Source: a virus
Taxonomy: Duplodnaviria > Heunggongvirae > Uroviricota > Caudoviricetes
Virus record (IMG/VR): IMGVR_UViG_2706794681_000009
Length of the DNA: 38,759 nt
Reading direction: 5' to 3' (one strand)
Shown here: positions 4,472 through 30,739 of the stretch, piece by piece
How the letters are laid out: each line of letters begins with the position of its first letter
How positions within the stretch are numbered: position 1 is the stretch's first letter
Notes under the pieces: generated by a model
Told to the model about the DNA's origin: nothing
The model's input: the letters and a program-made list of their open reading frames with translations, nothing else
Database searches by the model: none
Program-made: the position numbers and the translations under genes

Positions 4472-4726
4472 ATGCCAGAAATTAAAGGCACCGTCACTGA
4501 AGACCTGGTAAAACAGGCACTGTATTCCGGTGAAGTAAATAAGTTGCTGAAAGCGCAGGTCCGCAAGGATTTTGAGGCACAAATCGACACTTACGTTGAT
4601 GAAGTGCTGGCAAAACTTATTGGGCCAGCAGTTGCGGCCAGTGATGCTGATAATGAGCCGAAAACCGACGCGCAGCCAGAGCAACCAGACCCGGCTCAGC
4701 CCGGAACTGACAGTACCATGATGTAA
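4472..4726 (+). CDS. Hypothetical protein, 84 aa, acidic Pro-rich tail
   Basis: AAGGAGG RBS 6 nt upstream of ATG. Confidence 0.45.
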   Translation: MPEIKGTVTEDLVKQALYSGEVNKLLKAQVRKDFEAQIDTYVDEVLAKLIGPAVAASDADNEPKTDAQPEQPDPAQPGTDSTMM

Positions 4727-4893
4727 CAATACAAACCGGTGGTGTCCTCTGCCGGTTTGACACTAATGAAAACATCTTTGCCGCTATCCAGCCATATGTA
4801 ATCGCTGGATAGTATTTCGTATTCAGAAATATAGCTGCTTATGGAGCAGTCAATCCTGCTTCCCCATCCGGGCAGGCAAATGAACCGGTATCA

Positions 4894-5187
4894 TTAGTCC
4901 GATTCACGCTTTTGTAGAATCGTTCCCAGAATGCTATACAGCTCATTAGCCTGTTGCTCCATCATTGAGACGGAGGCTATACGGTGCAAAGTGATTTCAG
5001 GAGGTGGCACACCTCCATCTTCTTGCTGTGGAGGAAAAACATAAGATTTAATAAAAAAGTTGAAGCATATGAACTCTCCCGCACTCGAACTGTATTTGCA
5101 GGCATCTGAATAATCGGAAAAATAATCATTATAGATTTCCGCATTTTCAATCATTTTTCGATTTCTCGTCGTTACATGATTGTCCAT
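4894..5187 (-). CDS. Hypothetical protein, 97 aa, AT-rich gene divergent from com-mom
   Basis: AAGAGG RBS upstream; only long ORF in an AT-rich block. Confidence 0.35.
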   Translation of the reverse strand: MDNHVTTRNRKMIENAEIYNDYFSDYSDACKYSSSAGEFICFNFFIKSYVFPPQQEDGGVPPPEITLHRIASVSMMEQQANELYSILGTILQKRESD

Positions 5188-5310
5188 AGCAGCCTCTTAC
5201 GCTGGCAATTAACCAATTGACTTCTATAAATTAGTTGATTTGTTTGCTTTGCGGTATTCAAATGTACAATCATTCAGCACTTATGCGTTACAGCACCGTT
5301 TAAAATTAGT

Positions 5311-5396
5311 GATCAAACTCATAAATTTTCGCTAATGACATTTCGTGTTATTTGTTGTATCAATTAAATAAATCAAATCGATCGTTTTTGTCGATC
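5311..5396 (+). promoter_or_regulatory. mom upstream regulatory region with three GATC (Dam) sites
   Basis: GATC at 5311, 5380 and 5393, the last two within the palindrome AATCGATCG-N-CGATCGATT, just upstream of com. Confidence 0.5.
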
Positions 5397-5443
5397 GATT
5401 GAGTGATAAAGATATCAACAACAAAGCAGGAGGTTATGCGGCC

Positions 5444-5644
5444 ATGTATCGAAACATACGGTGCCGACATTGTAACAAGCTACTGGCACGAGCCAGCTTC
5501 AGTTATCTGGAAGTTAAATGTCCGCGCTGTAAAACCCTCAATCAAATCACATCTCAGAGCGCCACAGAGCACCCCACATACACAAGGAAATCCTGTCGTG
5601 GGGAACAGAAAGCAAGTTACATCCCGTATCATCAGCACGCCTGA
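5444..5644 (+). CDS. com: Com, zinc-finger translational activator of mom, 66 aa
   Basis: CRHCNKLL...CPRCKT zinc-finger pattern as in Mu Com; AGGAGG RBS 9 nt upstream; overlaps start of mom frame. Confidence 0.75.
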
Positions 5645-6335
5645 ACTTATTCACTATAACGACAATATCGTCGGTTATGGCTCCCGTGAGTTACGGGTTG
5701 AGACAATAAGTTGCTGGCTGGCCCGGCTGGTCGTCGTCAATAAACATTACAGCCATCGTTTCGTAAATAATTCCTACCTTCATCTGGGCATATTTTCAGA
5801 ACGGGAGCTGGTTGGCGTAATGCAATGGGGTTATGCCCTTAATCCAAACAATGGTGCACGCGTCGTAACTGGCACGCAGAACCGCGAATATATGGAGCTT
5901 AACCGGTTATGGCTGCATGACTGTATGCCGAGAAACTCCGAATCAAGGGCAATCAGTTACGCGCTCAAACTAATCAGACAACTTTATCCGCAGGTGCAGT
6001 GGGTTCAGTCGTTTGCAGATGAGCGTTGTGGCTGTCTTGGTGTCGTGTACCAGGCAAGCAATTTTGATTATGTAGGCAGTCATGAAACAACATTCTATGA
6101 ACTTGATGGCGAGTGGTATCACGAGATTTGCAAGAATGCAATCAAACGAGGAGGACAGCGAGGTGAACATCTGCGGGCTAATATCGACAGAGCCAGTGTT
6201 CATAAATTCCGTCAGTTTCGTTACATCCGGTTTCTGGACAAGAGAGCCAGAAAACGCCTTAACACAAAGCTATTCAAAGTCCAGCCTTACCCAAAACCAC
6301 AAACAGTTAAAACTGGTTTGAAAGAGAGTGAATGA
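5598..6335 (+). CDS. mom: Mom DNA-modification (anti-restriction) protein; start codon uncertain (GTG at 5598 proposed)
   Basis: Long frame overlapping com 3' end, position at phage right end after com; no ATG in frame near com stop, AAGGA precedes GTG 5598. Confidence 0.55.
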
Positions 6336-6407
6336 ACGCTTAAAAACTCATTCTAAAACTCAAAAGAAAAGCGCCGATTTAGTATCAAATAAGTTGCGTA
6401 TCGGCGT

Positions 6408-6657
6408 NNNNNNNNNNNNNNNNNNNNNNNNNNNNNNNNNNNNNNNNNNNNNNNNNNNNNNNNNNNNNNNNNNNNNNNNNNNNNNNNNNNNNNNNNNNNN
6501 NNNNNNNNNNNNNNNNNNNNNNNNNNNNNNNNNNNNNNNNNNNNNNNNNNNNNNNNNNNNNNNNNNNNNNNNNNNNNNNNNNNNNNNNNNNNNNNNNNNN
6601 NNNNNNNNNNNNNNNNNNNNNNNNNNNNNNNNNNNNNNNNNNNNNNNNNNNNNNNNN
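6408..6657. other. Assembly gap (run of 250 N)
   Basis: Literal N characters. Confidence 1.
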
Positions 6658-7039
6658 TCGCCAGGGCATTAACGTCAGCGGGACCAAGACTGTTTTTTGT
6701 GGCAAGCGTCCCCAGACCAAGATAACCACGGGCCAGACGCTGGGCCTCCGCACCGGCATCAGCAATTTCTTTCAGGTTATTTTTCCGGGAAAAGGCATTC
6801 GCAGCGATAATGGCTTTAATGGACAGCGTAAGCTGGTTTAACTGCGCCTTATCCGGCTGAATACTGGCTTCAGCCAGAATATTCAGCAGTTCGGCCTGGA
6901 GAATATTCAGCCAGTCCTGACCAATCCAGCTGATACCTTTTTGTCCGTCACCTTCGGTAAACCAGGTGGTGGTATTACTCTGCGCCGGTGCCAGCGCAGG
7001 CATATTCGCCACGCCGGAATTATTATCAACATGAAACAT
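6658..7039 (-). CDS. Tail fibre protein, N-terminal constant part, 3'-truncated by gap
   Basis: Starts MFHVDNNSGVANMPALAPAQ..., overlaps stop of upstream baseplate gene (TAATG); runs into N gap. Confidence 0.6.
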
Positions 7040-7599
7040 TAAATAGTCTCCTCTTCATGGCTGTTTGCATAAACGTAAATAAACGTCTGCCATGCAGGCT
7101 TATAACGGTTCAGAATACATTCCAGCGCACCGCCTTCATAAATACGCAGCGGCGTGAGAATATCATCCAGCACATTCATATTCCGGTAGCCGGTTTCACT
7201 GTTAATCGTGACAATACTGACCCACTGCGAATCCGGTGAGGGCTGAATGTCAATCTGATAACCAAACTCCGCCGCAAACCGGATATAAAATTCACGGTTC
7301 AGCGAGGGCTTCATCCGGTATTTATTTCCGGCATAACGCTGTCGCTCCGTGAGGGTGGCTCCGGCCATATCACACTCGGGAAGCCCGAGATAACGCTCCC
7401 AGTCTTCCAGCAGCAGGCGCGACGTGTCAGGGAAACGCTCGGCAAGCAGCTGTTTACCCGTCCAGGATACACGCGCTGTCGAATGACTGAGGCCCAGACA
7501 TAATGATGCCAGTACGGATGACGGACGCTTGTCCCATGCCAGCCCGTCAGGCAGTAACTGCAACAGGGCGCGCTGATGCGGGGTCAGGGTTACAGCCAT
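7039..7599 (-). CDS. Baseplate/tail protein (Mu gp48-like, YmfQ/DUF2313-like)
   Basis: Synteny between baseplate J-like gene and tail fibre; 186 aa. Confidence 0.55.
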   Translation of the reverse strand: MAVTLTPHQRALLQLLPDGLAWDKRPSSVLASLCLGLSHSTARVSWTGKQLLAERFPDTSRLLLEDWERYLGLPECDMAGATLTERQRYAGNKYRMKPSLNREFYIRFAAEFGYQIDIQPSPDSQWVSIVTINSETGYRNMNVLDDILTPLRIYEGGALECILNRYKPAWQTFIYVYANSHEEETI

Positions 7600-28685: not shown

Positions 28686-29108
28686 TCAGAAAAGCCGTGG
28701 CTGCGTGCGTTCCTGATGCAGGCGACGCTGGTTGCGGATAACGGAGTAAATCTGCGTCTCTGACATCTGGTAGTGGCGGCGCAGGGTTTCAATTTTTTCG
28801 CCCTGGCTCCAGCGGGAAAAAATTTCATTATTGCGCAGTTCGGTGAAAAGGGATTCACCGACCGGGAGATAATAACCACGCCCGCCCATGTACCCGGCCT
28901 GTGCGGCTGCAACCTTACGGGCAAGCATTCCCGCCTGAGCAGGTTCAATCCCCTGACGGTGCAGTTCAGCACTGATCACATCAACCAGGTCCCGCAGCGT
29001 GCCGGGCCAGTTCTTTTTCAGCTCATCATCAGGAATATCATCCAGACGGTCAATCAGCGCGTGCAGCTGTTCGCTGTCACCAAACATGCTCATCTGTGTT
29101 TCAGCCAT
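28686..29108 (-). CDS. Mor/C-family transcription activator, 140 aa
   Basis: Size identical to Mu C; C-terminal HTH; located between gemA-like gene and lys. Confidence 0.7.
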   Translation of the reverse strand: MAETQMSMFGDSEQLHALIDRLDDIPDDELKKNWPGTLRDLVDVISAELHRQGIEPAQAGMLARKVAAAQAGYMGGRGYYLPVGESLFTELRNNEIFSRWSQGEKIETLRRHYQMSETQIYSVIRNQRRLHQERTQPRLF

Positions 29109-29178
29109 ACCCGCCTCCGGTCATCATTACACAGGGCAAGTTTAAAATAAAAATCCCGCGCTGTGGCGGGATTTGGGG

Positions 29179-29691
29179 TTAACGGGGGAATGATTTTTCA
29201 TACAGCCTGCAAACACGCTCATAACTCATCACTGCACGTTCCGACATATCCAGGGCTGCCAGCATTTTGCGGCGGTGCCAGCGTTTGAGACGCTCCAGCA
29301 CATCAGAGGCCAGCGCGGGTTGTTGCTCCAGCCACTGCCAGTTAGCCACACCTTCGCCGTCGTTCTGCGCGGCCGTCTGCGATTTCACCCAGCGGTTAAG
29401 GGCCGTTTCCCCGCCATCAGAGATAAATCCCTGCCGGTGCATCACTTTCCAGATGGCGCGAATTTTGGCGGTCACCGTACCCGGTTTTAAGGCCCGGTTA
29501 ACCGGCTTCTGACGCACTTTAAAACCGCGTTTTTTGAAAACATCCAGCACGCGGGATAACTCACCGGGTGACATATCACGGCAACTGGATTTGCCGGTGG
29601 CTGCCAGCAGCGCGGATGTATAGGTATCATGGTCAAGCTGTAGATCGCGTTTTGCGACATGTATTAAGGTAATCAGGGAAGCGCGATTCAT
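29179..29691 (-). CDS. GemA/gp16-like protein
   Basis: 170 aa; position before Mor/C gene. Confidence 0.55.
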   Translation of the reverse strand: MNRASLITLIHVAKRDLQLDHDTYTSALLAATGKSSCRDMSPGELSRVLDVFKKRGFKVRQKPVNRALKPGTVTAKIRAIWKVMHRQGFISDGGETALNRWVKSQTAAQNDGEGVANWQWLEQQPALASDVLERLKRWHRRKMLAALDMSERAVMSYERVCRLYEKSFPR

Positions 29692-29706
29692 TATCGTGGC
29701 TCCATA

Positions 29707-29735
29707 AAAAATGGGCGGTGTTACCGCACCGCCAT
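29707..29735 (-). terminator. Hairpin plus T-run on the minus strand upstream of gemA
   Basis: GGCGGTG-N6-CACCGCC stem followed by TTTTTTAT on minus strand. Confidence 0.4.
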
Positions 29736-29761
29736 GTCAATTAACATAAAAGGAAAAATCT

Positions 29762-30001
29762 ATGTCAGATATAAAAAATGCACTTGATGTTGCCGCATTC
29801 ACAATGGCTGGAAATCTTATGGTAACCCTGTTCGATAAGGGGCTGATTTCCCGTGAGGAGGCAATACATATTATCAATCTCGCTCAAAAAAACTCTACCC
29901 CGGAAAATGCAGAAGATATCCAGGATGGCTCATATATTAATACCGACTGGCATTTCGACAATCTCCGGGCCTGTATGGGGATTACCGCTGAAAAAGATTA
30001 A
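29762..30001 (+). CDS. Hypothetical 79-aa protein on the strand opposite to the early operon
   Basis: Only long ORF in this 250-bp AT-rich stretch; AAGGA upstream. Confidence 0.35.
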   Translation: MSDIKNALDVAAFTMAGNLMVTLFDKGLISREEAIHIINLAQKNSTPENAEDIQDGSYINTDWHFDNLRACMGITAEKD

Positions 30002-30278
30002 AAATTTTTGCATAATGTTCAGATGTAAGAATTGCTGAACCATCAACACCGAGCCTACGGCGAACGTATTCCTCGCGGGCTATTTTATTATCCAGAGATA
30101 CAGCATCCTTAATCAGGTTAATCTCCCGCTCCATTATCAAAAGGGCTTCTCTGGCTGCAAGATTTTCTTTTATCGCATATTCGATAATGTCCCGCATACG
30201 TTCAAGCATGCCGATTTTAGCCAGTTCTTCGTCGATAGATTTAGGCGCAAATTTGATTTCTTTTTCCATATTATTCAT
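29982..30278 (-). CDS. Hypothetical coiled-coil protein (~98 aa), AT-rich
   Basis: ATG overlapping stop of upstream zinc-ribbon ORF. Confidence 0.45.
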   Translation of the reverse strand: MNNMEKEIKFAPKSIDEELAKIGMLERMRDIIEYAIKENLAAREALLIMEREINLIKDAVSLDNKIAREEYVRRRLGVDGSAILTSEHYAKIFNLFQR

Positions 30279-30414
30279 CCTCACAATTTATACATGCAGT
30301 GTCGTCGCCCATATCGCAGTGGTTACATTTTATCTCACCACAATGTGGGCACTCTTTCAGATACTCCGGGTCCTCATTTCCACAGGTGGGACATTCAACA
30401 ATTTGCTCATCCAT
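30271..30414 (-). CDS. Zinc-ribbon protein, 47 aa, four CxxC pairs
   Basis: CPTCG...CPHCG...CNHC...CINC; translationally coupled to flanking genes. Confidence 0.4.
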   Translation of the reverse strand: MDEQIVECPTCGNEDPEYLKECPHCGEIKCNHCDMGDDTACINCEDE

Positions 30415-30739
30415 TATGTATCCCCTGTAATTCCGGCAAGGCCGAAAGATGGCACCAGTGCGTCACCTGTCCGTCCTCATCTTCAAGGCAGGCTCCGGTT
30501 TCTTCATCAATAAAAAAGCCTTCATACCCCATATGGCCGATGCGCAGTTCCTGTTGGTCACCATACTGAACAATCAGCACGACAGCCTCCATATCAGGCG
30601 GAAATGCGTCATCCAGTGAATGCCAGGGATAACCGCGCAAATCCCCGAAATAAACGCCGGTCAGCGTTCCGCCACAGAGCGGCATTCCGGCGGCACACAC
30701 AAGAGGTTCATCTGATTCAACAAATAAGGTCGTTATCAT
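30407..30739 (-). CDS. Hypothetical protein, 110 aa
   Basis: ORF in early operon, coupled starts/stops. Confidence 0.4.
   Translation of the reverse strand: MITTLFVESDEPLVCAAGMPLCGGTLTGVYFGDLRGYPWHSLDDAFPPDMEAVVLIVQYGDQQELRIGHMGYEGFFIDEETGACLEDEDGQVTHWCHLSALPELQGIHNG

Follow-up and report, generated by a model that had tools for sequence, protein, structure and literature searches.

The subject of this analysis is an AT-rich block at positions 29700-30420 of a 38,759-nucleotide stretch of Caudoviricetes DNA (IMG/VR virus record IMGVR_UViG_2706794681_000009), the whole of which is referred to here as the window. The prophage in the window is Mu-like, with phage genes on the minus strand in the order Gam-type gene, homologues of Mu genes 11 and 12, a gene for a 183-residue DNA-binding protein, a 110-residue open reading frame (ORF), the AT-rich block, gemA (29179-29691, minus strand; Pfam PF06252 GemA, 1.8e-28), which is the next gene downstream on the early strand, a single Mor-family activator gene and a lysozyme gene. 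Within the block lie two minus-strand genes encoding proteins of 47 and 95 residues, a 79-residue ORF on the opposite strand and, ahead of gemA, a GC-rich hairpin. BLAST searches of phage genomes matched the 47- and 95-residue genes to Mu, D108, SfMu and related Yersinia phages, and PHROG families of unknown function cover all three proteins (matches from 1e-45 to 3e-26). The order in the RefSeq record of Mu (NC_000929) is Mup13, Mup14, an opposite-strand Mup15 that overlaps the end of Mup14, and then gemA; the layout in SfMu is alike. Judged from homology and gene order, the block represents, in the window, the gene 13-14-15 module of bacteriophage Mu, with which the semi-essential early region ends before gemA, in agreement with a first-pass annotation that had placed the block in that region. 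The module is known in Mu, where it is functionally uncharacterised, and the window carries a new allele of it as opposed to a new kind of system. A prophage of E. coli JE86-ST05 matches positions 29600-30500 with 100% identity. In that genome (NZ_AP022815.1) five places match the 901-bp query and three match a 24-kb prophage backbone, indicating that JE86-ST05 carries several Mu-like prophages or copies.

The block is also distinct in base composition, as the first-pass annotation had proposed. Its GC content is 41.5%, compared with 53.4% for the whole window, which falls within the lowest 5.1% of all 721-bp windows along the sequence, and the block constitutes one of only four low-GC troughs. 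The GC content at third codon positions (GC3) is 0.37-0.42 in the three block genes versus 0.59 in gemA and the Mor-like gene, and the GC and GC3 scans agree that composition is not uniform. Among relatives the GC content of the module is 38-45%, against 50-56% for gemA, the exception being one phage that is AT-rich throughout. Since the same low GC recurs in every relative, it is regarded as an old property of the module and not as a mark of recent capture.

Genes 13, 14 and 15

The gene 13 homologue (30271-30414, minus strand), taken from the ORF list, encodes a 47-residue member of phrog_5584 (3e-26) that is predicted to bind two zinc ions. The four CxxC pairs that had been noted earlier (CPTC, CPHC, CNHC and CINC) are present at this ORF and are common to the window and Mu, and the core of the protein is 88% identical to Mu gp13 (tblastn against Mu, 2e-27). 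Zinc-ribbon models in Pfam scored below threshold, the best being Zn_ribbon_LapB with 16.8 bits against a cut-off of 25.7. The start of gene 13 overlaps the stop of the upstream 110-residue ORF by 8 nt. Linkage of gene 13 to its neighbours is looser than that of the other two genes: no gene-13 homologue was detected in related loci L017 or L018, and an extra gene is located between 13 and 14 in SfMu. The zinc-ribbon core (30274-30414, minus strand) additionally matches the C-terminal 41 residues of a 231-residue family, phrog_6418 (1.7e-20), indicating that this domain also exists fused to a larger phage protein. In the identical E. coli prophage, the 47-residue gene is missing from the NCBI annotation.

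The gene 14 homologue (29982-30269, minus strand; phrog_6075, 6e-44) lies within an ORF that spans 29982-30284 and offers alternative starts at 30278 and 30284. The methionine at 30269, most likely the start of a product of 95 residues, is invariant in the alignment of all 20 of 20 family members; its ATG falls one base past the TAA of the 47-residue gene, with GAGGA positioned 7-11 nt upstream. With the start at 30269, genes 13 and 14 are adjacent and not strictly overlapping. The first-pass annotation had described an overlapping stop and start between the 47-residue gene and a gene of about 98 codons; the adjacency stands and the two genes are plausibly coupled, judging from their spacing, whereas an overlap arises only with the alternative starts. 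The gene 14 product is 49% identical to Mu gp14 (tblastn against Mu, 4e-28) and shares a conserved C-terminal motif, NKxAR(D/E)xx(V/I)RRxLG, with its family, for which an exhaustive search among 1.84 billion proteins returned 15 representatives only. AlphaFold2 predicts an all-helical protein with a 35-residue central helix (residues 44-78) and a predicted local distance difference test score (pLDDT) of 87.5, which bears in part on the putative coiled coil of the first-pass annotation.

The gene 15 homologue (29762-30001, plus strand; phrog_32893, 1e-45) encodes an acidic protein of 79 residues (net charge -7) and is preceded, 8 nt before its ATG, by AAGGA. Its 3' end overlaps that of gene 14 by exactly the 20 bp anticipated in the first-pass annotation (29982-30001). 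A direct pairwise BLASTP comparison with Mu gp15 yielded no significant similarity, although the conserved N-terminal core aligns. The two proteins are tied, however, via intermediates in L013, L014, D108, L017 and L018, and a family profile recovers the Mu-type 88-residue proteins (4e-24 to 5e-23). The core motif is roughly a[FY]x[IM][AS]GxL[LMI]xxL[VF]xKG[VIL]I[ST]xxE[AG]xxI, while the C-terminal helix occurs in three types, that of the window (DWHFDNLRAC) being present also in L013, L049 and L018. Net charge ranges from -1 to -15 across alleles. The family comprises 22 clusters, all of those with a source name being from E. coli; Pfam holds no model for the gene-14 or gene-15 family, and tblastn with the window and L018 gene-15 proteins matched one phage record. 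AlphaFold2 models the gene 15 product as three helices (pLDDT 70). A transmembrane location was considered for this protein and rejected, the hydrophobic first helix being below the usual thresholds in 13 of 14 alleles and packing within the modelled three-helix bundle.

Database records disagree as to whether gene 15 exists at all. In NC_000929 the opposite-strand gene is annotated (L001:2214-2480), whereas the current GenBank record of Mu, AF083977.1, has in its place a 55-residue ORF on the early strand, Mu_54 (L004:949-1116), and the record of D108 annotates nothing in the stretch. These records would suit the proposition that the plus-strand ORF is spurious and that the sequence between gene 14 and gemA is a leader or encodes a small early-strand protein such as Mu_54, a proposition with which the coincidence of third codon positions in gene 15 and Mu_54 is also compatible. 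Since that coincidence means that codon-position counts cannot separate the strands, such counts were dropped as a strand test and the ratio of nonsynonymous to synonymous substitution rates (dN/dS) and conservation of the ORF were used instead. Values of dN/dS for the gene-15 frame were 0.21-0.39 in five pairwise comparisons, akin to those of neighbouring genes; three further comparisons, between near-identical Mu-type genomes, involved no more than 5 substitutions each and were uninformative. The other five frames over gene 15 all contain stops and have higher dN/dS values (0.45-2.4), stops being present in every early-strand frame in the window and its relatives, and Mu_54 is not preserved beyond near-identical genomes. 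The plus-strand frame, conversely, is open with an ATG and a ribosome-binding site in 14 of 14 allele types, down to approximately 25% identity, and its products retain conserved motifs at both ends. The unannotated stretch of D108 (L002:2141-2500) likewise encodes a 119-residue gene-15 homologue. Opposite-strand gene 15 is, on this pattern of conservation, a genuine protein-coding gene, and the conflict between the Mu records appears to be settled in its favour; that the ORF is spurious is extremely improbable.

Gene 15 nevertheless exists in damaged form in some relatives. A minority of copies are frameshifted at homopolymers, either the A7 run located at 29886-29892 (plus strand) in the window or a C-run, and truncated copies also occur. 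A second plus-strand frame (29853-30038), 61 codons without a stop, runs across the C-terminal half of gene 15 and enters the end of gene 14. L016 has A6 at the first of these runs, which shifts translation to this other open frame, and relatives frameshifted at A7 or the C-run continue in it to give products of 88-92 residues. The second frame could be open by chance or could provide a tolerated alternative C-terminus.

Convergence and exchange of genes 14 and 15

The convergent arrangement of genes 14 and 15 was examined in 30 distinct loci, collected via gene-14 and gene-15 relatives, that leave room beyond gene 14. In 28 of these, gene 14 is met by a convergent gene-15 relative, with overlaps of 20-98 bp, including loci in which gene 14 is just 30-34% identical to that of the window. 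Both exceptions retain gene 14: in L040 gene 15 has been cleanly deleted, and in L046, a metagenomic relative, it is replaced by a 136-residue opposite-strand gene with a weak match to DUF2513 (736-1146). No related loci were found in a collection comprising one genome per species. Since the two genes converge with shared 3' ends, antisense interference would be expected when both transcription units are active.

The same layout had led to the suggestion, in the first-pass annotation, of antisense regulation or a toxin-antitoxin-like pair. Association of a gene-15 relative with gene 14 across loci of roughly 30-100% identity, 3' ends that invariably overlap where both genes are present, and the exchange of gene 15 jointly with the 3' third of gene 14 (below) could all be taken as signs of an interacting, mutually regulating pair, whether toxin-antitoxin-like or regulator and anti-regulator, that is subject to antisense control through the 3' overlap. 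However, gene-15 alleles reassort against gene 14 and gemA (in L009, and in L014 and L015), gene 14 persists without gene 15 in L040 or beside a different opposite-strand gene in L046, and intact copies of gene 14 are found beside frameshifted copies of gene 15. Nor does the organisation resemble established types, the convergent genes not being co-transcribed, unlike type II systems, and neither being a short hydrophobic peptide, unlike type I; the products are soluble-looking proteins of 79-95 residues, the highest 19-residue Kyte-Doolittle mean for gene 15 being 1.27, and searches of PADLOC, Pfam and NCBIfam returned no match. Reassortment of gene 15 and the occurrence of gene 14 without it render a toxin-antitoxin-like pair unlikely, and a mutually regulating 14/15 pair, of that or of the regulator and anti-regulator kind, is considered very doubtful.

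Comparison of individual loci indicates how gene 15 reassorts. L014 and L015 are 92-94% identical to the window in gemA and 70-73% in gene 14, but only 28-32% in gene 15, whereas L009 is 99% identical in gene 14 and 84% in gene 15; overall, pairwise identities for the two genes correlate with a coefficient of 0.49. The junctions of the gene-15 swap are sharp, being located at approximately 29735, right after the hairpin, and at approximately 30100, inside gene 14. When L014 and L015 are added to the comparison, variability at 29731 steps from 2 of 100 sites to approximately 50%. Among the four window-type loci, a 150-bp block at 29631-29780, comprising the 5' end of gemA, the hairpin and the ribosome-binding site and start of gene 15, is invariant (0 of 150 sites vary), while the flanking 50-bp bins vary by 6-36%. 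These alignments show that gene 15 and the 3' part of gene 14 have been exchanged as a unit between phages.

The slot itself is variable. The 24-kb backbone is present in 226 of 5426 complete E. coli genomes and the cassette (at least 80% of the query) in 14. In L006 (E. coli STEC2018-607) the slot is occupied by one unrelated co-directional ORF, and in L050 (E. coli O157:H7 F1273, 1316-2816) five unrelated co-directional ORFs lie between the gene for the 183-residue DNA-binding protein and gemA. The proposal that the block is a horizontally acquired cassette therefore holds in part: its distinct composition and its position in a variable slot are confirmed, whereas its being private to this phage or newly captured is not, given that it is found in Mu, D108, SfMu and relatives whose gene 14 is 30% identical. 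Judged by its distribution, the cassette is exchangeable but old, and widespread among Mu-like phages.

Opposite-strand genes are not confined to this slot. L006, which has no 13-15 cassette, carries between gemA and the Mor-like gene (1396-2053) a convergent pair consisting of a 140-residue opposite-strand ORF and a 78-residue early-strand ORF, with no match in Pfam. The neighbourhood of gemA seems to be a hot spot for accessory genes on the opposite strand. Elsewhere in the window, the lowest-GC stretch (4530-7302, with a minimum of 28% near 5937) includes a gene encoding a 310-residue Mom-family protein (5403-6335, plus strand; Pfam PF25680, 1.6e-77), which is oriented opposite to the late genes and has neighbouring ORFs without a family match.

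The hairpin before gemA and a model for the module

The terminator scan placed a GC-rich hairpin followed by a T-run at 29733-29704 on the minus strand, bearing out the feature reported at this point in the first-pass annotation. The stem (29733-29727 and 29720-29714) has seven pairs, six of them G-C, and encloses the loop CGGTAA; the sequence GGCGGTG-CGGTAA-CACCGCC (29733-29714) is followed on the minus strand by CATTTTTTAT. The element is situated between the gene 15 start and gemA, 10 nt before the ribosome-binding site of gemA. An alignment of 11 divergent intergenic regions shows it to be conserved, 94.7% of cells being paired and two pairs being supported by compensatory changes (L013 and L018). 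Stem sequence, stem length and loop all vary with pairing kept, the loops comprising 6 nt, 4 nt or a GAAA tetraloop. The T-rich tract is found on the early strand in 11 of 11 variants and never on the other strand; that of Mu is weak, those of the window, L014, L018 and L049 strong. Wherever gemA comes after an opposite-strand gene the hairpin is there, and it is kept before gemA in L040, where gene 15 is deleted, and in L046, where the DUF2513-like gene takes its place; it is absent from L006 and L050, in which gemA overlaps a co-directional gene. From its structure and orientation, the element looks like an intrinsic terminator or attenuator acting on the early strand. The possibility that it serves as the terminator of gene 15 was rejected, as it sits at the 5' end of that gene and its T-run is on the early strand. 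Searches against Rfam found no RNA family in 29700-30420.

A second terminator-like hairpin is located at 29151-29174 (minus strand), where a 9-bp stem is followed by TTATTTTAAA, between gemA and the sole Mor/C-family gene (28686-29108, minus strand), which is itself followed directly by the lysozyme gene. In the window, gemA is thus bracketed by two terminator-like hairpins.

It seems somewhat more probable than otherwise that a joint explanation accounts for these features, namely that the block is the Mu 13-14-15 module in which gene 15 is exchangeable, is transcribed separately and faces opposing early transcription, and in which the hairpin attenuates transcription before gemA and mor. 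Genes 13 and 14, whose starts and stops touch or overlap those of their neighbours, end the minus-strand early operon and would be ordinary members of it, while gene 15 would be an independently transcribed accessory gene. RNA polymerases from the early promoter would cross the full length of gene 15 in the antisense direction, and gene 15 would be well expressed only when early transcription is low, that is, in the lysogen or outside the early burst. At the hairpin and its U-run, early transcripts would be terminated or attenuated shortly ahead of gemA and the gene for the Mor-type activator. Transcription of gene 15 and the hairpin-terminator together could then throttle early read-through into these genes and thereby gate the switch to late development.

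Several observations weigh against this explanation. No sigma-70 promoter for gene 15 was found above shuffled expectation, either in a consensus scan, which a weak or activator-dependent promoter would escape, or by eye; the 20-35 nt, differing by allele, that separate the hairpin from the gene-15 ribosome-binding site contain, on inspection, weak -10-like hexamers but no -35 element. Independent transcription of gene 15 is inferred, since no promoter exceeded chance. The scan also found no plus-strand terminator after gene 15 (past 30001), and the existence of frameshifted and truncated copies implies that the gene is dispensable, at least in prophages. A search of the literature returned no functional or expression data on Mu genes 13-15. 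With respect to the hairpin, the Mu-type T-run is weak (CCCTTTCC) and termination there may be inefficient, while AF083977.1 places a 'semi-early promoter' on the intergenic region that contains the hairpin. The last two points would be better accommodated if the element were not a terminator but a recombination boundary, a protein-binding palindrome belonging to divergent gemA and gene-15 promoters, or an element that affects stability or translation of gemA mRNA. In keeping with such roles, the swap junction falls exactly at the edge of the hairpin with the adjacent 100 bp nearly invariant, and in the folds of Mu and L013 the gemA ribosome-binding site is paired with the tract that follows the hairpin. 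However, because the stem and loop change, in length as well as in sequence, while pairing stays, the element fits a folded RNA better than a protein operator of fixed spacing, and a role other than termination would leave the consistent presence of the T-rich tract on the early strand unaccounted for. Such a role is therefore considered quite unlikely, and the terminator or attenuator reading is retained.

What the three proteins do is a separate matter. Sequence searches of Pfam, NCBIfam, PADLOC and the PDB, conducted with the single proteins and with family profiles, returned nothing above threshold for any of the three, and fold searches with the gp14 and gp15 models gave generic helical matches only. 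For zinc ribbons and small, acidic proteins of helical fold encoded in this region, gp13-gp15 among them, the most plausible activity is binding to nucleic acids or to proteins of the host or the phage. A small size, acidic charge and helical fold are features of many phage proteins that inhibit host proteins. The gene-15 proteins answer to that description and their alleles diversify fast and are exchanged, as might be expected if gene 15 encoded a host-takeover or anti-defence protein that acts in the lytic phase, is expressed from its own promoter and has only an incidental relationship to the hairpin. Its location in the semi-essential region, whose genes are described as for the most part uncharacterised and as potentially beneficial to the host (PMC3820752), would also be consistent with such a function. 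On the other hand, head-on early transcription should depress gene 15 precisely in the early lytic phase, the promoter that this scheme calls for was not identified, and neither sequence nor fold shows likeness to known inhibitors. A lytic-phase role is thus regarded as unlikely, albeit deserving of more weight than the alternatives considered above.

The joint explanation can be carried further, though only tentatively and at a level of confidence well short of even. The gene-15 family might consist of small, fast-evolving acidic proteins, exchanged as cassettes, that are expressed while the prophage is repressed and function, for example, in superinfection exclusion or modulation of a host factor. 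In that case the head-on unit and the hairpin could amount to an unrecognised checkpoint in Mu-like phages that stops leaky early transcription short of gemA and the Mor-type activator gene, and the Mu annotation that drops gene 15 would be wrong.

Significance and comparison with known systems

Although Mu serves as a model phage, the majority of its semi-essential early genes are without known function (PMC3820752). For this region, the present analysis corrects the annotation of Mu in favour of gene 15 and supplies for D108 a homologue that is missing from its record. It further shows that both the convergent 14/15 pair and a structured element before gemA have been kept across widely divergent loci and that phages swap gene 15 as a cassette, and it points to a candidate control point immediately ahead of the genes by which late development is triggered.

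One point of reference is provided by Fc02, a Mu-like phage of Pseudomonas, in which gene 10 and an overlapping ORF encoding a 7.9-kDa protein are each reported to exclude superinfecting phages, the forward-strand ORFs being reported as transcribed in the lysogen along with the repressor (PMC9936078). Like the phage of the window, Fc02 is a transposable phage in which a gene overlaps an early-operon gene on the other strand. The overlapping genes of Fc02, however, are beside the repressor gene as opposed to gemA and bear no sequence relationship to those examined here.

The closest counterparts are the 13-15 regions of Mu (for which the older designations E14 and E15 exist), SfMu and D108, which share with the window the order of semi-essential region, gene 13, gene 14 converging on gene 15, hairpin and gemA; the convergent 3' overlap and low GC are likewise shared with the Mu module. 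Identity between the Mu and window proteins falls from 88% in the gene-13 core to 49% in gene 14 and about 22-24% in gene 15. Mu gene 13 has a 19-residue N-terminal extension that the window's lacks, the C-terminus of gene 15 is of a different allele type (DWHFDNLRAC in the window, KIMEDIISSL in Mu), and the overlap between genes 14 and 15 is 20 bp in the window compared with 62 bp in Mu. The T-run after the hairpin is much stronger in the window. Finally, the window has a single Mor/C-type activator gene and a second terminator-like hairpin past gemA, whereas in Mu gemA and mor overlap, and two activators, first Mor and then C, act in sequence.

Comparison can also be made with morons, the independently transcribed accessory genes, defined in work on lambdoid phages, that are inserted between conserved phage genes, since the first-pass annotation had used this term for the block. 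Moron-like properties in the window include atypical GC content and polymorphism, both of presence and of allele, among close relatives, while gene 15 in particular has its own orientation and ribosome-binding site and is dispensable. Unlike a moron, the plus-strand gene has no flanking promoter or terminator that the consensus and terminator scans could find. The block differs from a moron also in being an old unit that is widespread among Mu-like phages, with genes 13 and 14 as ordinary members of the early operon.

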